Of a stretch of DNA of 64,000 nt, positions 1 to 63,988 are shown in pieces; positions within the stretch are counted from its first letter, which is position 1; each line of letters begins with the position of its first letter. This DNA is from Escherichia phage Pollock. The DNA lies in sequence record NC_027381.1; one strand, 5' to 3'. The position numbers and the translations under genes were made by a program. The notes under the pieces were generated by a model that ran no database searches, had not been told where the DNA came from, and saw nothing but the letters and a program-made list of their open reading frames with translations.

Positions 1-60
1 AATGCACACAATCATTCTGTAAGCAAAGTACTCCCCCCCCCCCATACTTCACACATTGAT

Positions 61-85
61 GAGTCTTCGACTCTAGTGGAGCAAT
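61..85 (+). promoter_or_regulatory. Hairpin promoter-like motif copy 1 (candidate virion-RNAP early promoter)
   Basis: Inverted repeat gagtc-TTC-gactc (5-bp stem, 3-nt loop) followed by tagtggagcaat; same architecture recurs at 1501, 1551 and 3828; lies about 45 nt upstream of ORF 119..454. N4 vRNAP promoters are small DNA hairpins with 3-nt loops. Confidence 0.5.
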
Positions 86-118
86 GGTGCTCTACTTAAT
101 CATGATTAGGAGTATGTT

Positions 119-454
119 ATGAAACCTGTTAACTCTATCGGTATCTTTGGTGCTGTATCTTCCTCTACTGTATCTGCATTGAATGCAATTGAACGTGGTG
201 CAGTAGCTGTAGCTAATACTGCTAACATGGCAGTAGCTCTTACTGAATGGGGTAATGAGGAGATTGAGAACCTTCGTCATCATCGTGCTATGAAGCGTGA
301 AGTAGAAGGTGAAATCTTCCGAACCAAGTATGTAATGGAAGCAGCTAAAGAAGTAGCTGAAGTACATGCAGAAGCCAATAAAGCTATGGAGAGTGCATCT
401 CCCGAAGTTAAAGCAGTATTTGATGCATTAGTAGCTAAGCATCTCAACAAGTAA
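119..454 (+). CDS. Early hypothetical protein, Ala-rich, 111 aa
   Basis: ORF directly downstream of hairpin motif copy 1; followed by hairpin plus T-run terminator at 463..487; no recognisable domain. Confidence 0.5.
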   Translation: MKPVNSIGIFGAVSSSTVSALNAIERGAVAVANTANMAVALTEWGNEEIENLRHHRAMKREVEGEIFRTKYVMEAAKEVAEVHAEANKAMESASPEVKAVFDALVAKHLNK

Positions 455-462
455 TTACTAAG

Positions 463-487
463 CCTACTCTTCGGAGTAGGTTTAAAA
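463..487 (+). terminator. Rho-independent terminator
   Basis: cctactc-ttcg-gagtagg stem-loop followed by TTT, immediately after the stop of ORF 119..454. Confidence 0.6.
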
Positions 488-696
488 ATTCTAATTCACA
501 CATTACACATCAGATAGATAGTATGTACATAAACACATGTGTATCCATACATATCGCTATAACGCTCTAGGAAGCTCTACAATGAGATTAAGGGTAGAGG
601 TAATAGGGTAACTCATGTTGATTTAATTCAATTGATTCTAGCTATGCTAGAAGACTTATACATTACTTACTTCTTAAGCTTCTCACTTCGTGAGTA

Positions 697-3827: not shown

Positions 3828-3852
3828 CTGCCTTCGGCAGTTCTGGGGTAAT
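3828..3852 (+). promoter_or_regulatory. Hairpin promoter-like motif copy 4
   Basis: ctgcc-TTC-ggcag followed by ttctggggtaat; about 30 nt upstream of macro-domain ORF 3870. Confidence 0.45.
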
Positions 3853-54950: not shown

Positions 54951-57806
54951 TTACTTATTCTCAAGTGCATCTATTCTACTAACCAATACATTAACAGTTT
55001 CTGCTAATGAATCAATTTGATTAATAGTAGCTCTCAGACACCACCAAAGAAGTTCTTCTTTTCTAAAGCGATATCGAGTACCTGCTTCTAATGCAGGACG
55101 TACTAGAACTTTTTGAGATTCTCTTACAAGTACTAAGGTTGTACCACTTAATAGCTCTCCTTCATCAGAGTAGATAGCAGGTTGTACAGGTACTTCTTCA
55201 TACTCTGCTGGAATCTCTTCATATTCTGCTTCAACAGCATCCCAAGAATCTAAACAGAAAGCACTGTATTTTCTCCAATCCAGTCCATGTTTAGTCATGA
55301 TATCAATTGCTGCTTGCACAGTAGGACCAGAATGTAATCTGGCATCATCACCTTCTTCTTCAATTCGTTGTAACCATCTCCATACAGAAGGTAAACGAGC
55401 TATTTCTGCAAATGCAGCAATCTCTGATGAATTGATATCTCTTGGTTCATCTTTCAATGTTGCATCAGATACAACAGTCGGTGAATTATTAAAGTAAGCA
55501 TTACTGAATGCTTTACTAGAAGAACCAATATTATAGGTATTGTTAGTTGAAGGTAAGAAGTTACCTTTAATATCTGTATCCATCTGCATGAATGCAGTGC
55601 CGTTACTACGGGCTGCAATTACATAAGCGTCAGCAGAATCGTCATAAATACCCAGATTCCCGGATGTTGATACCTGGAAAGCTCCCGCCTTCAGCGTGGT
55701 ACTGATAGTCATGCGCTTCTGGGTTTTGTCATCCGATTTAATATTCACGCCCTGCAGGTATGCCACATTCCAGCGATTTGGCGATGACCCCAGATTCATT
55801 GCCTTGTCCTGGTCGGGATGAAATGACGGCGAGACCGGACTCAATAATACAGACCAGGTCTCGCTGCCATCGGTACAATAAAGCCTTGTGCGCCCCGCCG
55901 ACTGAGTATCGTTCATTGAGTAAAGGTTAATCCCGCCACCGCTCAACAAATTCACGTCAGCGCGTATTTCCAGACAATCGTGCACGGCGTTCAGGCGGTG
56001 TTTCCACTGAACGAAGCGGCCTGTGTATTCTCCGGTTCGGAACGCATCCCCGAACAAACGAAAAACAGCAGCAGAAGTGTCTGTATCCGGAGCCTCCTTT
56101 CTGACCTCAAATAACGGGCGATGCGAGCGCAGATTCTGCTCATAGGCTGCCACCTGGAAGTCTTCATTGGGTGACAGGGCAATATTTACAGCATTGGGAC
56201 ATAGAAAAAGACTGGCATGACTATCAGGATAAGCTACACCAAAAATTGAATACCCAGTACCATCATAAGGTTCTACAGAGACAATAGCTTTAGTACGCTT
56301 TGTTCTTGTACCACGAGTATAAGTCTTTGTTGAATCCCATTGACTTGCATTACTTGTTCCATAAGTAGTAGGTGTCCAATAAGTTGGGTTTACTGGAGAA
56401 TACCCGGAAAAATTAGCTGTTCTTGCAGCAAAGTATTTTCCTTCAAATAAAACAACATCTGCTGTGGCATACCAAAAATCCATATCAAGCAGATATAGTT
56501 TACCTTTATATAAAGCTAATCCTTCTGGTTCTTGTAAACATGGATAACCTAATTCTGCATTACCAAGCATTTTCTCACGTCCATACTTAGCACGCACACC
56601 ATCTACATTAAACCATCTAATAATCTCACCTGTGAATAAATTATAAATAACAATACGGTGGGTTAAGAAAACACCATTGTATCCATAATATACATATAGA
56701 TATTGGTCATCACTTGCCATCCCTTGGAAAGATTGAGCCACCATAGGGATATTATTTATATGAAATCTATATTTAAATGTTAAAGAAACACGGTCAAATA
56801 CATAAATTATACGGTGGTCATCTCTGTTATACTGTACGTGAACAGGCTCACCTATAGTTTCAATAACTAATGTTTTACCACTTTCAGATAATGCAAGTGT
56901 GATAATTTCATCGTTGTTATAGAAGTCTGATTTAAATACTTCTACTCTAGTAATATTTGATGTAGTAGTATCTCTTCCTTTCCAATTAATTATATTGATA
57001 CCTTTACTGTCTTCAGTAGGTAAATACAAAATTACACCACCATTCTCATATATAGCCCCGATACTCTGATGACCTATATCTTCAAATACTGGAGAGAAAG
57101 AAATAACAGTAGGGTTTTCATTGTCCCCTTCTGGATTAAATGTTGTTTCAACAATTCTAACTCCACCTGTTACTGGTTGATGGATAAACATACGTAAACC
57201 ATCTGGAGTTTCACAAATACAGAATCCCTGACTTAAATTTTCTGCACCTTCAAAAATTCCTGAATAATCAATATCATGTACAACTTTATGTTGTAGAGCT
57301 ATATTATCAACAATAGGGTTATGTGTTGCTAAAGTTCCTACAGGAACCCATGCACCAACATGAATACCTCCACTTTTTTCTGGAGTAGAATCTGGTTCAA
57401 CTACTTTAGGTAGTTCTCCATCCCATCTATATAAACCAGAAATACTTGTAAGTACTTCATTCTTAGTAGTTATAGTAGTTCCTGTAGTAAATGAACCAGG
57501 TACAGTTATAAACTCTTCTCGTTGTGCCCCTAATTCACCTAAATCTACAGAACCTTGTGAATGTACAAGTACAGCATCAGTACCAAGACTGATGGCAGTA
57601 GTACCAGAAGAAATGTCAGTAGGTAAGGAATAAGCTCTTTGTGTTGTCTTATCATAAATAACCTTATAACCACCTAAATCTACTCCTTCTGAGAAGTAGA
57701 CTACTTCACTCTGTTTAACACCAAACTTACGAGCAATAGCTTGTTTGTTGGTTAAGATTCCAGTTGAACCTCTACCACCTTGGCTGAACATTTCGTTCAT
57801 ATACAC
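54951..57806 (-). CDS. Tail fiber or tailspike with C-terminal intramolecular chaperone (peptidase S74-like) domain
   Basis: C-terminal region contains SDATLKDE (S-D-x-x-x-K cleavage-site motif) and DDARLHSGPTVQAAIDIM (S74-like core); contains a locally GC-rich internal segment. Confidence 0.6.
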   Translation of the reverse strand: MYMNEMFSQGGRGSTGILTNKQAIARKFGVKQSEVVYFSEGVDLGGYKVIYDKTTQRAYSLPTDISSGTTAISLGTDAVLVHSQGSVDLGELGAQREEFITVPGSFTTGTTITTKNEVLTSISGLYRWDGELPKVVEPDSTPEKSGGIHVGAWVPVGTLATHNPIVDNIALQHKVVHDIDYSGIFEGAENLSQGFCICETPDGLRMFIHQPVTGGVRIVETTFNPEGDNENPTVISFSPVFEDIGHQSIGAIYENGGVILYLPTEDSKGINIINWKGRDTTTSNITRVEVFKSDFYNNDEIITLALSESGKTLVIETIGEPVHVQYNRDDHRIIYVFDRVSLTFKYRFHINNIPMVAQSFQGMASDDQYLYVYYGYNGVFLTHRIVIYNLFTGEIIRWFNVDGVRAKYGREKMLGNAELGYPCLQEPEGLALYKGKLYLLDMDFWYATADVVLFEGKYFAARTANFSGYSPVNPTYWTPTTYGTSNASQWDSTKTYTRGTRTKRTKAIVSVEPYDGTGYSIFGVAYPDSHASLFLCPNAVNIALSPNEDFQVAAYEQNLRSHRPLFEVRKEAPDTDTSAAVFRLFGDAFRTGEYTGRFVQWKHRLNAVHDCLEIRADVNLLSGGGINLYSMNDTQSAGRTRLYCTDGSETWSVLLSPVSPSFHPDQDKAMNLGSSPNRWNVAYLQGVNIKSDDKTQKRMTISTTLKAGAFQVSTSGNLGIYDDSADAYVIAARSNGTAFMQMDTDIKGNFLPSTNNTYNIGSSSKAFSNAYFNNSPTVVSDATLKDEPRDINSSEIAAFAEIARLPSVWRWLQRIEEEGDDARLHSGPTVQAAIDIMTKHGLDWRKYSAFCLDSWDAVEAEYEEIPAEYEEVPVQPAIYSDEGELLSGTTLVLVRESQKVLVRPALEAGTRYRFRKEELLWWCLRATINQIDSLAETVNVLVSRIDALENK

Positions 57807-57852: not shown

Positions 57853-60800
57853 TTAGTAAAATTTCTTTTCAGTAGAAGATTCTAAAACAGAAAGACGTTC
57901 TTCTATTCTTTCTAATCTTCTGCGTAGATAAGCAGCCTCAAGCCATAAGCATTGGTCTGCACGTATTCCCCAACGATTACCAGCCTCTCTTACGAGAACT
58001 TTTTCACCAGTATCATATTCTTCCTCTACTTCTGTTTCCACACCATCAATAATGGTAGATACTTTTCTAGTTGCTAATACTGGCTCATAAGAGTCTTCCC
58101 ATTCGTCATAACAAAGAAGACCAAATTTAGTTCCATCTAAACCATGAGCAAGGAAAGCATCTCTTACCTGTTGAGCTATTACACCAAAATGCCAACGAGC
58201 ATCATCATTTTTAAGTTTGATAGCAGAGAGCCAACGGAAAGCTATGATTCTTACATCTTCCCAAGCATCCAGAATTGCATCTCCATCATATTCTGAAGAC
58301 AGAGATGAGCTAAGTTCACTGGTAGTTACTGGCTCTGTTTTCTCTCTTTCATCAGATGTATTTATTGTTCCAGATACAGCATAAACCTGAGTAGGTCTAT
58401 TATCTGCAACACCAAGACTATAGGAGTTATCCAGATAAGGATGCCAATGACCATTTGGACTTACTTTCCATCTCCATGTGTCATTACTTCCCAAATGTAA
58501 ATCAGCTCCATTTGCAGCCATTAAAGCTACATTGGAAGTGCTCATGTACATCTGGAAATAACCAACGCCTTTTCTCTGCCATTCATAAAGCAAGCCTGTT
58601 TCCTGTTCGTTGTTGAACTTTAATGCTTTTATAGGTGAATTTTCTCCCCATGTTGTATCACCCGAATAAATTACATGAGGAACCACCTCAGGATTATCAG
58701 AGATACATATTTCTTTAGATGGTAGAGATAGCGTTCTTTTATCTCCTGCACCAAGCGCATAAATCAGAATGGTGCGTCTGGTTGCCCCCATAACATCAGA
58801 ATGCTCAGATACTATTGTTACCGATGGATATAGAACACCATCGTAATCAACAAAATGCATTCCTTCTGATTCACGGAATGTAGGAGTAGAACCAATGATT
58901 CTAGGTAAATCAGTATCACCTAAATCAGAGATAGCTTTCCGTACATCATTACCTAACAAGTCACAACTGGATAAGTACTGGGTTTGTCCAAATGTAATAT
59001 TCCCGCAATACATATACAGATGCGAGCCATCAGAACAAAATCCACTAAGTGATGTGGTTTCATCACCACCGACTTGTGAAAGTTGAAGAGTAAACTCATG
59101 AGTACACATAGATGAATAATCACCTTGTGTATCAAAAATATCTGTAGAGAAAATGCGGAATGTTTGATTGTTGTAGTCAGCATTATCAGTAAATCTAACA
59201 ATCAACCATTTACCATCAAGAGAAATAGTAGGTGTAGTTGAGCTACCTGCTGTACGAGTTTCTTCTACAACTCTAAACAATTCAGGCGCATCAATTTCAC
59301 CGTCTGTGTTACTTCTCCAAGAAAATCTAACAATCCCGTGAGAACCGCCTACAGAAAAATCAAAATCAGTATGGGTAGTAGAACCTGCTGGTGTATCTGG
59401 TGCTGTAGTCCATAACTTAATTGCATTATTTAAATTCTGTACTGCTATACCCTGATGACCCAATCTGTCTTCAGGTAACATAAAGTCAGTAGAACTATTA
59501 ATAATTCTTGAGTCAGCAGAATACTTATTCCAGATAGAAACAGTAGTGGCATTACCATCTATTTCTGTATTGTGGTTAGAGTAATAAGCCCTATCTACAG
59601 GGTCATATGTGAATGTCTGTAGTGTTCTTATTTGTCCACGACCCTGAGCAATAGGAATGAATCTTACTGCTGAATTAGATTCTCGACCTATAGTATAAAC
59701 ATCCCATGCTGGCTTCTTATTAGTAAGAAGCTCCCCATTCATAGGAATGGATTTTCCGTTTATAAGCCAAGTACCATTAATATAGATATTTTTAAAGAAG
59801 GTTTTAGTAGTGGCATATACTTTGCCATCCATATCTATAACCTTGGATGTAACATCTGATTCTAGTTGCTCAAATGCACTAGTATCATCAGTAACACCAT
59901 TACCTACTATTCCCCATGCACGAGGGTCATACTCATCTTTCCAACGAGCTATCTGTAAATCAGGATATAAAGTAGCACCATCAGGATTACTAATTTTATC
60001 CTGAAGGTCTAAACCAGTAATTACTTCATCTAAGATAACTACTACGTTACCGGGAGTATAAGTAAGTTTTCCATCTGCTACTGTAGAGATATAAACATTT
60101 CTTAAAGCAGTAGGTAACCTATAGATTTTCTGTTCATCTACAGAATAGATAATAGTTTTATTATCTAATGCCTGACTGGTATTAGTACTTAAAATTACTT
60201 CTGAATTTTTTACATTAGTGGCTCTTGCTACCTCTTGAATAGTACGGTCAGCAATCTCAATAACTTCTTGCTCACCTCCAATCTGAATAATCAAACGGTC
60301 ATTAGCAACCAATGGTTCAGTAAGAGTAATGGTTTGAGCATTAGCATCTACAAAGTAGGATTGAGTTTGTAATCCCTTATAGAATCTCAAACCATTCTTA
60401 AATACCGCAGGAATATCCTGAAAGGTATATGGAATATTGATAGTAGTTTCACCACCAACAGCAGCACCTTCATTGTATAACCAGTTAAAAATAGTCCAGT
60501 TATCAATATTTGGATTATCAGGTACAGCAGGAGTACCACTAAGAAGTAAAACTACTTCATCTCCTTCCTCTAAAGCTTGAGATAATGTAACCAAGTTATT
60601 GGAAATAGAGAATTGAAATCCATAACCAACAGATTGCATGTAGCCATTAACAATAATAAATGGAACACTTACAGTTCCATTGGGTACTGTAATAGTAGTT
60701 TCTCCACCTAAAGCAAAGCCACTCTTATAAACATAAGGAATGTAGGAACCACCACCATTTCCACCAGACGAGGATGTACCTACAACAATCCAACTACCTG

Positions 60801-61119
60801 TAGCTCCAGATTCATTAGGAATGATTCCAGAAGTATCGTTTTCTACATACAAATAATCTGTATAGATTATGTAACTAGAATCAAAAGTATTATAGATACG
60901 TGCATACTTGACAGATACAGGAAGTGCTTTTAATTCATCTTCTGAAGTAACACAAATAAGTACTCCATACTTATTTAGAAATTCATAGATAAAGTGAATT
61001 TCTCCTAAGCTATCATATACAGCTTTAACTACGTCATATGCTGTACCAATAAACTTTTCTACTAATGGAGCATTGTTACCACAACAAGTATTAGTAGTTC
61101 TGATTGACATTATACCCAT
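57853..61119 (-). CDS. Tail fiber or tailspike with C-terminal intramolecular chaperone (peptidase S74-like) domain
   Basis: C-terminal SDEREKTE motif and DDARWHFGVIAQQVRDAF (matches the G-x-IAQEV core of S74 chaperone domains); 1088 aa, Gly/Thr/Ser-rich. Confidence 0.65.
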   Translation of the reverse strand: MGIMSIRTTNTCCGNNAPLVEKFIGTAYDVVKAVYDSLGEIHFIYEFLNKYGVLICVTSEDELKALPVSVKYARIYNTFDSSYIIYTDYLYVENDTSGIIPNESGATGSWIVVGTSSSGGNGGGSYIPYVYKSGFALGGETTITVPNGTVSVPFIIVNGYMQSVGYGFQFSISNNLVTLSQALEEGDEVVLLLSGTPAVPDNPNIDNWTIFNWLYNEGAAVGGETTINIPYTFQDIPAVFKNGLRFYKGLQTQSYFVDANAQTITLTEPLVANDRLIIQIGGEQEVIEIADRTIQEVARATNVKNSEVILSTNTSQALDNKTIIYSVDEQKIYRLPTALRNVYISTVADGKLTYTPGNVVVILDEVITGLDLQDKISNPDGATLYPDLQIARWKDEYDPRAWGIVGNGVTDDTSAFEQLESDVTSKVIDMDGKVYATTKTFFKNIYINGTWLINGKSIPMNGELLTNKKPAWDVYTIGRESNSAVRFIPIAQGRGQIRTLQTFTYDPVDRAYYSNHNTEIDGNATTVSIWNKYSADSRIINSSTDFMLPEDRLGHQGIAVQNLNNAIKLWTTAPDTPAGSTTHTDFDFSVGGSHGIVRFSWRSNTDGEIDAPELFRVVEETRTAGSSTTPTISLDGKWLIVRFTDNADYNNQTFRIFSTDIFDTQGDYSSMCTHEFTLQLSQVGGDETTSLSGFCSDGSHLYMYCGNITFGQTQYLSSCDLLGNDVRKAISDLGDTDLPRIIGSTPTFRESEGMHFVDYDGVLYPSVTIVSEHSDVMGATRRTILIYALGAGDKRTLSLPSKEICISDNPEVVPHVIYSGDTTWGENSPIKALKFNNEQETGLLYEWQRKGVGYFQMYMSTSNVALMAANGADLHLGSNDTWRWKVSPNGHWHPYLDNSYSLGVADNRPTQVYAVSGTINTSDEREKTEPVTTSELSSSLSSEYDGDAILDAWEDVRIIAFRWLSAIKLKNDDARWHFGVIAQQVRDAFLAHGLDGTKFGLLCYDEWEDSYEPVLATRKVSTIIDGVETEVEEEYDTGEKVLVREAGNRWGIRADQCLWLEAAYLRRRLERIEERLSVLESSTEKKFY

Positions 61120-61857: not shown

Positions 61858-63480
61858 CTAAACCAGATAACTATCAATTCCATTGGTTTGATGAGGTGTA
61901 GACATATCCCATATACTATCTTCTTGTACGGCTCCTGAGATGCCCTGAGATGGTTTCCACACCTTCAAACAAGACAACATACTGATGGTATCAATGAAGT
62001 CATCATGCTTACTTTTAAAGCCTTCTACAGTAGCCATACGAAGTTCATCCATAGCTTCAAGCATGATTTTTTCTTCCTTCATTTCTTCAGGGAAGTAAAA
62101 CTTACCTGTTTTAAACCAAGGAAGTACTGTATTGAATCTCACCATCTTATTGGTATTAGGTCTAATACCCGGTCTATTGTTATTGCCTTCAGAAGCAAAG
62201 TTAAACCAGATATTACGTCTCATCATCTCATCCTGAAGTAGAGGGATGAATCCACCTTGTTGACCTGTAACTTCAATACCTACAGATTGAGGTTGGTATT
62301 CAACTACCAATCTAAATAAATCATCGAAGTTTTTATCCATAAGCTGACGTCTACAGATACCATCAACCCAGAACCAGTCACCATTACTATTGATAGCCCA
62401 TACAGATATTACAGAGAAGTCTGCTGATTGCTTATCAGAGGTAGCAAAGTCAGTAGTGATATAAAAATTAAAATGCCCTCTATTCAGTAGTAGAGATTTA
62501 CGTTTATACCACTGAATATCTGACTCAAGAATTAGTCGTTCTTCATCAGAAGTAATACGTAACATCAATTCTTGGTTAAATGCAGCTACCTGTCCTGTAG
62601 ATACAGCAAGGTCATACTGACCTTTAACAAAGTCATAAGAGAATCTGTCTTCCCATGCTCCTACAAATTCTTCTCTCGTACATGGGAATTTCTCACATAT
62701 TGGGAATACGTTGACGTACCAACCCCCAGACTCAACAGCTTCATAAAGAATATCGTTCTTGTTAAAGGGTGTGCCACTGAAAACAATTTTTCTACGAGTA
62801 GGGTCAAGAGCATAGTCTACTCCTTTATACACAGTATCTTTAATTGCCTGCATTGTGCTCTTAGATTTAGCATCATCATCACTAACCAAATCATCAAGCA
62901 CAGCTAAAACAGGACGTTTACCAAAGATTTTAGTACCACGTAAACCAGTTTTAGCACCAAACATACGAACACCTAACTTATGTCCATCAGCATTAGTAAA
63001 TTCTAAGTAGGCATCAGTGAATTTAGCTTCAGGAATGTACTTCTGAAGAAATTCAGAGTTGTTATAGCGATATTCGATGTTTTTTCTTAATGATTTAACC
63101 CCGTTTTCCATAGAATCCGAGATATAAATCATACCCTCGATTTCACCAAATCCATCAATTTCACCATAAAGTGCTATGTATAAAACTAGATACTCACCAA
63201 ATAGAGTAGTTTTAGCCATACCACGAGAACATAGATTAGCTAATCGAGTACGTTTACCTGCTAATTCATCTAACATCTTAAGATGAACTACAGGAGTTAG
63301 ATTTGACTCTCCTGCTTCACCATTAACTAACTTAATAAAGTTAACGTAATTAAGTGCGAATACAGAAGGAACATAATTTCCAGAGTTCAAGGAAGCATAA
63401 TCGACAGAATTAAGCCATTCCTCTACTGTCTTTTTAACCATTGGGTCTTCTTTAATCGACACGTTCTGATTCCCCATCAA
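61858..63480 (-). CDS. Terminase large subunit
   Basis: Walker A-like CSRGMAKTT, Walker B-like VLAVLDDL, C-terminal RNase H-like nuclease acidic residues (ITTDFATSD, KHDDFIDT). Confidence 0.75.
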   Translation of the reverse strand: MMGNQNVSIKEDPMVKKTVEEWLNSVDYASLNSGNYVPSVFALNYVNFIKLVNGEAGESNLTPVVHLKMLDELAGKRTRLANLCSRGMAKTTLFGEYLVLYIALYGEIDGFGEIEGMIYISDSMENGVKSLRKNIEYRYNNSEFLQKYIPEAKFTDAYLEFTNADGHKLGVRMFGAKTGLRGTKIFGKRPVLAVLDDLVSDDDAKSKSTMQAIKDTVYKGVDYALDPTRRKIVFSGTPFNKNDILYEAVESGGWYVNVFPICEKFPCTREEFVGAWEDRFSYDFVKGQYDLAVSTGQVAAFNQELMLRITSDEERLILESDIQWYKRKSLLLNRGHFNFYITTDFATSDKQSADFSVISVWAINSNGDWFWVDGICRRQLMDKNFDDLFRLVVEYQPQSVGIEVTGQQGGFIPLLQDEMMRRNIWFNFASEGNNNRPGIRPNTNKMVRFNTVLPWFKTGKFYFPEEMKEEKIMLEAMDELRMATVEGFKSKHDDFIDTISMLSCLKVWKPSQGISGAVQEDSIWDMSTPHQTNGIDSYLV

Positions 63481-63988
63481 TTATTAGTTTAGTATGAGCA
63501 ACTTCTTTAGCGGAATACAAACCACCTTCAATGAGTTGTTGCTGCTTCGCAGCTAATCTTGAAGTTATTTCTCTTAATTCATTAATAACTCCACCTTCCT
63601 GAATACCAACATTGAGTTCAATCTTACTGGCTTCAGGACGTTTAAGATGATTAAGCAATGAGTTGGCTGCATCACATCTAACTTTTTCACTTTTAGCTGT
63701 CAACATTAAATCAGCTTGTACATTAATAGCTTTCTGGAATATGTCAGCATTAAGTACATGAGTTGGAACCAAAGTTTGCTCATAAATTAAATTAACTAAT
63801 TTATTTTTATTATATGCAGATACATAACAATGAATGTCCTTAGTAGGAGTATTGTTATTTAAGAAGTTCTGATATCTATCAGGGAATGTTTTTATGTAAG
63901 CTTCAAAGTTAGTGTGTCCCATCAGTTTAAAACTTACGTACTTAACAGCAGAGATATAGTCTTCAATCTTAAACCTACCTTCTTTCAT
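63452..63988 (-). CDS. Hypothetical protein upstream of large terminase (possible small terminase; may extend beyond called start)
   Basis: ORF immediately upstream of and overlapping the terminase large subunit start; near the window edge. Confidence 0.35.
   Translation of the reverse strand: MKEGRFKIEDYISAVKYVSFKLMGHTNFEAYIKTFPDRYQNFLNNNTPTKDIHCYVSAYNKNKLVNLIYEQTLVPTHVLNADIFQKAINVQADLMLTAKSEKVRCDAANSLLNHLKRPEASKIELNVGIQEGGVINELREITSRLAAKQQQLIEGGLYSAKEVAHTKLIIDGESERVD

Follow-up and report, generated by a model that had tools for sequence, protein, structure and literature searches.

Left-terminal region of the genome

The stretch of DNA analysed here, called the window throughout, comprises 64,000 nt of Escherichia phage Pollock (NC_027381.1) and covers a 68,365-bp N4-like phage genome from its left end up to 64 kb. 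Its GC content is ~36%, in agreement with the AT-rich character already ascribed to it by the first-pass annotation. For the initial 3 kb of the window, matches of up to 83% identity were found in 17 phage records, all of them N4-like podoviruses of the Schitoviridae, mostly Humphriesvirinae (Ithacavirus, Pylasvirus) plus Triduovirus, and by this sequence relationship the window phage is a member of Schitoviridae near Ithacavirus/Pylasvirus. Both GC skew and AT skew flip sign at ~32 kb, in keeping with the usual N4-like layout, in which rightward early/middle genes give way to leftward late genes. The features considered below are the following.

1–610, no strand assigned: left copy of the direct terminal repeat (DTR), repeated free of mismatches at the right end of IMGVR_UViG_2706796286_000001 (68,365 bp)
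5–11, plus strand: CACACAA box, 4 nt from the left end and invariant in the 12-sequence clade alignment
12–28, plus strand: spacer of kept length and variable sequence (ATCATTCTGTAAGCAAAG, ATCTTTTATTAATCCGAA or ATAAATTTAAGCAATG in the clade), with at most one 1-nt indel
29–43, plus strand: poly-C box TA-(CT)-C11, homopolymer at 33–43, matching the TA-C(6-11) of 14 Schitoviridae
44–60, plus strand: ATACTTCACACATTGAT between the C-run and the P1 hairpin, near-invariant in the clade alignment
61–85, plus strand: first early-promoter-type hairpin (P1), GAGTC-TTC-GACTC plus TAGTGGAGCAAT, with the form of N4 hairpins and an annotated equivalent in KP8
119–454, plus strand: gp1-like first gene, inside the DTR, with homologues at the left end of relatives and the N4 gp1 family at the same place in other genera
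61858–63480, minus strand: large terminase (phrog_38 terminase large subunit, E = 6.5e-99)
63452–63988, minus strand: candidate small terminase (N4 gp69-like), an ORF cut by the window end, whose full-length homologues have ~231 aa

The left-end order in the window reads AATGCACACAATCATTCTGTAAGCAAAGTACT-CCCCCCCCCCC-ATACTTCACACATTGAT-GAGTCTTCGACTC. A run of about twelve Cs had previously been reported at 44–55. Such a run does exist and the string given for it (ctcccccccccccatac) is present in the sequence, but the homopolymer consists of 11 Cs and is located at 33–43, directly preceded by CT and hence in a local C-T-C11 context, whereas positions 44–55 hold the sequence that follows it (ATACTTCACACA) and share no base with the run. 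This C11 is the sole C/G homopolymer of at least 7 nt among the 64,000 bases, the runner-up being one G6. Dinucleotide-preserving shuffles of the window are expected to contain a 9-C word 0.01 times each, and arithmetic from base composition (C = 18%) gives roughly 6e-4 expected C/G runs of at least 11 nt; at such a C content, chance falls far short of accounting for the C11.

As had also been noticed beforehand, the tract lies just upstream of the first hairpin, GAGTC-TTC-GACTC at 61–73, which begins 17 nt downstream of the run. This hairpin has a 5-bp stem and a TTC loop, with TGG at 77–79 and a transcription start predicted near G78. Hairpins of the same shape are found in N4 (GTTGC-TTC-GCAAC, GAAGC-TCC-GCTTC), and the KP8 record labels the equivalent site 'early promoter'. 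Altogether, five plus-strand hairpins (61–85, 682–706, 1501–1525, 1553–1577 and 3828–3852) present a 5-bp stem and a TTC loop followed by T..TGG(A/G)G.AAT, and from their sequence they look like N4 virion-RNA-polymerase early promoters. Those at 1501 and 1553 are 52 nt apart.

The tract could accordingly be an upstream element of P1, or else the place on the incoming DNA end where the injected virion RNA polymerase docks or is anchored. Its placement 17 nt upstream of the first promoter-type hairpin, the location of early genes at the left end, which the N4 virion polymerase transcribes from hairpin promoters, and the TTC-loop hairpins found downstream of the C box in T7 and T3 as well all speak for such a role. 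We nevertheless consider it improbable, given that a C-run is found near the first of the five hairpins and not close to those at 682, 1501, 1553 and 3828, that the spacing from run to first promoter-type hairpin varies from 15 to 96 nt over the 14 phages compared below, and that the tract falls at about −46 to −36 relative to the predicted start, outside the N4 promoter, which is reportedly contained within about −18 to +1 (Glucksmann 1992; Davydova 2007). The narrower proposal that the tract forms part of an N4-type hairpin promoter, characterized by a 5–7-bp stem and a 3-nt loop ~11 nt before the start, was rejected on the same position, on folding, in which it is not a hairpin, and on the four other promoters without a C-run.

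At the opposite end of the window, the gp69-like protein encoded next to the large terminase is highly conserved and all-alpha, carries no annotated function and returned no match in Pfam, a PDB-sequence search or Foldseek; it is a weak candidate for the small terminase. Two tail-spike-type proteins of 951 and 1088 aa are encoded nearby on the minus strand (54951–57806 and 57853–61119), each ending in a Peptidase_S74 intramolecular chaperone domain, the former with an N-terminal TSP1/Gp66 domain.

Genome end and terminal repeat

Since the last 610 bases of the genome repeat window positions 1–610 exactly, window base 1 is the first DTR base. The C11 starts 32 nt inside it and, sitting within the 610-bp DTR, occurs in both copies. 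An association of the tract with genome termini, suggested earlier as a possibility, is thereby borne out, the more so as a C-run is similarly placed in 14 Schitoviridae. Window base 1 also aligns exactly with the PhageTerm-predicted DTR start of Klebsiella phage Pylas, 4 nt before the invariant CACACAA, and from the DTR boundary together with this alignment we infer that it is the physical left end. The right boundary of the DTR (window 590–610) is G-rich on the top strand (AAGGGTAGAGGTAATAGGGTA), a feature also present in Pylas, LIT1 and LUZ7 and absent from Axy10/Axy24, in which the DTR terminates within gp1.

The ends of N4 were reportedly mapped by Ohmori, Haynes and Rothman-Denes in 1988. 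A passage in PMC3896407, citing Ohmori 1988, describes N4-type genomes as unique at the left end and as having several right ends. A unique left end implies sequence-specific recognition near it.

The tract in close relatives

All close relatives carry the tract in the same context. In an alignment of 12 clade genomes across the junction at the DTR start, the variable spacer gives way to TA, which is invariant, then to the C-run, to AT(T)AC(T/A)TCACACA and finally to the hairpin GAGTCTTCGACTC, accompanied by TAGTGGAGCAATGG. Two conserved boxes held at a fixed distance across a free spacer have the look of a protein-binding site. The far side of the left cut, which is the unique right end in a concatemer, is likewise conserved in the 12 genomes. 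A conserved block immediately outside the left cut, …AGG(G)TT.GAG.A..TTAATAATTATGTCT.ATAG…, occurs as a tandem duplicate in two metagenomic relatives.

The CACACAA box has a near-copy, CACACAT, at window 50–56, just past the C-run. Motifs of the CACAC/TACAC type are also found at the very left end of other Schitoviridae: in Axy10, Pokken, RiverRider, inbricus and G7C, (T/C)ACAC occurs 3–4 times from the end to the C-run and reappears ahead of the P1 hairpin.

The length of the tract differs among relatives, with C9 in FSL SP-076 and two metagenome contigs, C10 in As2, SP154, TR2 and SP-058, and C11 in UTK0002, B2, MY01, Pylas, KpCHEMY26 and others. Judging from these sequences, the tract is plausibly prone to length variation, and the C9/C10/C11 differences among near-identically flanked relatives could be real slippage or sequencing error. 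Differences of 1–2 nt between close relatives and a slippage-prone length are shared with phase-variable homopolymeric tracts, and they would suit either a contingency tract acting as a switch for a gene or promoter or a hypermutable run devoid of function. However, the window tract lies outside any ORF or promoter spacer and its position is kept over family-level divergence. It is non-coding: the ORFs that cross it are mechanical (34 and 38 aa in the junction context) and are not conserved frames, because tracts of 9, 10 and 11 Cs in close relatives break any frame. A scan found no sigma-70-like promoter or intrinsic terminator overlapping it, and if the run were neutral, its position, strand and minimum length of 6–7 nt would not be preserved across genera this divergent. 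Contingency or neutrality is therefore highly improbable as an explanation of the tract, and a phase-variable gene switch in particular is effectively excluded.

An assembly artefact had been contemplated as well, to which a sequencing artefact near the end of a contig may be added. The tract does lie near the contig end, homopolymer length calls are error-prone, and the FSL SP-058, UTK0001 and UTK0002 records begin at it. Yet it is internal in the permuted records of MY01, B2, SP154, SP-076, TR2, IME11, inbricus and several metagenome contigs, and because it is found in more than 25 independent assemblies produced by different technologies, an artefact is not supported and deserves hardly any credence. 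The FSL SP-058 record (KC139517) derives from a circular assembly that was opened at the tract instead of the physical end: both record ends carry the tract and ~20 nt following it (~30 nt overlap), and the true first 30–32 nt of the genome are found at the record's right end.

A left-terminal C box across Schitoviridae

The comparison was extended to 14 phages, namely N4, G7C, KP8, IME11, LIT1, LUZ7, S6, Axy10, Axy24, Pokken, RiverRider, HN05, Pylas and the window phage. All present a top-strand C-run of 6–11 nt with TA before it, starting 29–35 nt from the left end (mean 31.4, SD 1.5). Run lengths and positions from the left end, along with the basis on which that end was placed, are as follows.

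N4: C9, 32–40
G7C: C7, 32–38; record start, terminal repeat annotated
KP8: C7, 35–41; record start
IME11: C7, 33–39; NGS read starts (PMC3896407)
LIT1: C7, 30–36; run-off sequencing
LUZ7: C7, 29–35; run-off sequencing
Erwinia S6: C9, 30–38; record start
Axy24: C8, 31–38; annotated DTR
Axy10: C7, 31–37; annotated DTR
Pokken: C7, 31–37; PhageTerm
RiverRider: C7, 30–36; record start
Burkholderia HN05: C6, 31–36; record start

The flanks of the run are mostly unalignable between genera. Runs of C6–8 are followed by GG(G) and runs of C9–11 by A or T, resulting in an uninterrupted G.C block of 8–12 bp. Most genera have a second box, CTACCCCA(C/T), ~25 nt further in, whereas the window clade and S6 have one long run near the hairpin, as if two boxes had merged. 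Presley is an exception, with an interrupted CCCTCCCCC at 41–49. In JWAlpha and Frozen the run is at 6 and 57, respectively, counted from record starts that may not be physical ends, and the DSS3phi2 record is opened away from its end and so is uninformative on the position of the run.

The window tract shows the elements of this left-terminal C box: it is in the DTR, starts at 33, has TA at 29–30 with an extra CT, and is followed by the hairpin and the gp1-like gene. It is an ordinary, expected member of a family-wide element, of a kind already known from the cis-acting signals that short-DTR podoviruses carry in their terminal repeats.

N4 itself (EF056009) resembles the window in that its C-run is on the top strand, equally far from the unique left end, within the DTR and upstream of the first TTC-loop early-promoter hairpin and a gp1-like gene. 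It differs from it in flanks that cannot be aligned and a gp1 protein that is barely similar, in a second C box (CTACCCCAC) with 49 nt from run to hairpin, as opposed to the single long run and 17 nt of the window clade, and in an inverted repeat around its C9 (GGTGGGGCTACAC / GTGTAGCC..CCCCACC) that is absent in the window.

This inverted repeat is one of several observations that would suit an element of replication, recombination or end maintenance, in which the G-rich 3′-ending strand (poly-G and TG repeats) would serve in fold-back priming, in strand invasion as concatemers form or in shielding the end that is injected first against exonucleases. The left end has a G/T-rich complement whose 3′ end is at the terminus, an element of this type would be expected at a terminus just as much, a link between the long homopolymers of N4-like phages and replication was a speculation of Fouts et al. 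2013 (PMC3670811), and a passage of PMC3896407 cites hairpin priming at the 3′ ends of N4. On the other side, single-stranded folding of the terminal 60–95 nt of the window, N4, G7C, Pokken and T7 is no better than that of shuffles (z from −1.0 to +0.7), the flanking stem AAGTA/TACTT is broken in the B2/SP-058/SP-076 subgroup, a single tract is unable to form an intramolecular G-quadruplex or i-motif, and a spacer of fixed length and variable sequence better fits protein recognition of a duplex. All in all, we deem a replication or end-maintenance role unlikely. A stable terminal fold-back was dropped as the main reading because folding of both strands did no better than shuffles, and a G-quadruplex or i-motif, which takes at least four closely spaced G or C tracts, was likewise rejected, the tract being single and no other C/G run of at least 4 nt occurring within 1–80.

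Likeness to the T7 group

T3, T7 and SP6 are, like the window phage, short-DTR podoviruses with a C-run followed by ATA 26–32 nt from the left end, even though the T7 group belongs to a different family, the Autographiviridae. T3 starts with TCTCATAGTTCAAGAACCCAAAGTA-CCCCCCCC-ATAGCCCC and has C8 at 26–33 (C8-ATA at 26–36), T7 has AAAGTT-CCCCC-ATA-GGGGG-TACC at 26–38 (C5-ATA at 26–33) and SP6 has GT-CCCC-ATA-GGG at 29–38 (C4-ATA at 29–35). By position and sequence, the C11-ATA of the window at 33–46 conforms to this T7-group pattern. AAAGTA-C8-ATAG in T3, AAAGTA(CT)-C11-ATAC in the window and AAAGTA-C11-ATAC in Pylas are nearly the same string. Moreover, the T3 9-mer CCCTACCCC at ~64–72 is the second box of G7C, KP8, IME11 and RiverRider (about 60–75), and in T3, several Enquatrovirinae and RiverRider it comes after the poly-C box and before a TTC/TCC-loop hairpin. 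TTC-loop hairpins are found downstream in T3 (TAACC-TTC-GGTTA) and T7 (GTCAACC-TTC-GGTTGAC).

There are differences too. The T7 and SP6 sites are palindromic (C5-ATA-G5 and C4-ATA-G3), whereas the window and T3 lack the G arm. The terminal repeats of the T7 group harbor the concatemer-junction packaging signal (PacB/PacC). T7 packaging relies on a Pac signal in which PacB is bound by the small terminase gp18 and PacC is cut by gp19 (PMC9860248). The candidate small terminase of the window has no detectable similarity to T7 gp18 (no Pfam match).

It is conceivable, if rather doubtful, that Autographiviridae and Schitoviridae inherited from a common ancestor an old terminal-repeat architecture, namely the succession of left end, ~25–32 nt, C-run(ATA), second box CCCTACCCC and TTC-loop hairpin. 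In it, the C box would be the core of a common packaging and end-processing signal, and in both families the adjoining promoter-type hairpin would couple the phage's single-subunit RNA polymerase to DNA maturation, much as polymerase pausing at the concatemer junction does in T7.

Similar strings are found beyond these phages. A scan of IMG/VR with AAAGTACCCCCCCC returned at least 120 heterogeneous contigs, and AAAGTA-C(8+) occurs in other IMG/VR phage contigs in termini-like contexts, including a 45-kb contig that has it at both ends and a 182-kb contig that has it ~50 nt from an end. One contig harbors the perfect palindrome AAAGTA-C9-TAC-G8-TACTTT, and one group of contigs shows GTACACAT repeats just upstream of AAAGTA-C(8+).

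The C box as a putative packaging signal

The explanation that we favor, tentatively and at slightly less than an even chance, is that the C11 works in cis as a signal at the terminus, setting where terminase makes the left-end cut. The module would comprise the left end, 4 nt, CACACAA, the spacer of fixed length and variable sequence, TA-C(n)-AT and the first early promoter. Within it, the C box would act in cis as a duplex, an uninterrupted G.C block of 8–12 bp, and would be part of the site by which the packaging machinery recognizes replicated concatemers. The recognizing protein would be the large terminase (61858–63480), probably along with the gp69-like protein encoded just upstream of it, and the unique left-end cut would be made at a fixed distance (~31 bp, three helical turns) upstream of the C box. 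We infer both the binding of terminase to the C box and the setting of the cut position by it from four considerations: the constant ~31 bp from run to cut, the variable distance to the promoter, the conserved spacing of the bipartite site and the parallel with the T7 group.

Relation to previous reports and significance

The searchable literature yielded no description of the tract in N4-like phages, and papers on LUZ7/LIT1, a review of the N4 family and reports on UPEC Schitoviridae and on Achromobacter phages do not mention it. The closest observation is that of Fouts et al. 2013, who tabulated homopolymers and found the longest ones in N4-like phages (up to 12 nt in VchO139-I), stating 'significance not clear' and suggesting replication or polymerase slippage; unlike the present analysis, theirs made no tie to the genome terminus, a fixed position or the DTR (PMC3670811). 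The terminal C box would account for the unusually long homopolymers that they saw in these phages.

If the C box is indeed a packaging or end-processing signal, it would be the first concrete candidate for a pac element in N4-like phages. A terminal architecture common to these phages and the T7 group is possible, this link between N4-like and T7-like phages being the more speculative part. As a landmark, TA-C(6-11) upstream of a gp1-like gene predicts the physical left end ~31 nt upstream in any Schitoviridae assembly, which is useful in view of the many assemblies of this family that were deposited circularly permuted or opened at the tract. For the window phage, the tract is genuine and family-typical, and it probably marks a correctly opened genome.
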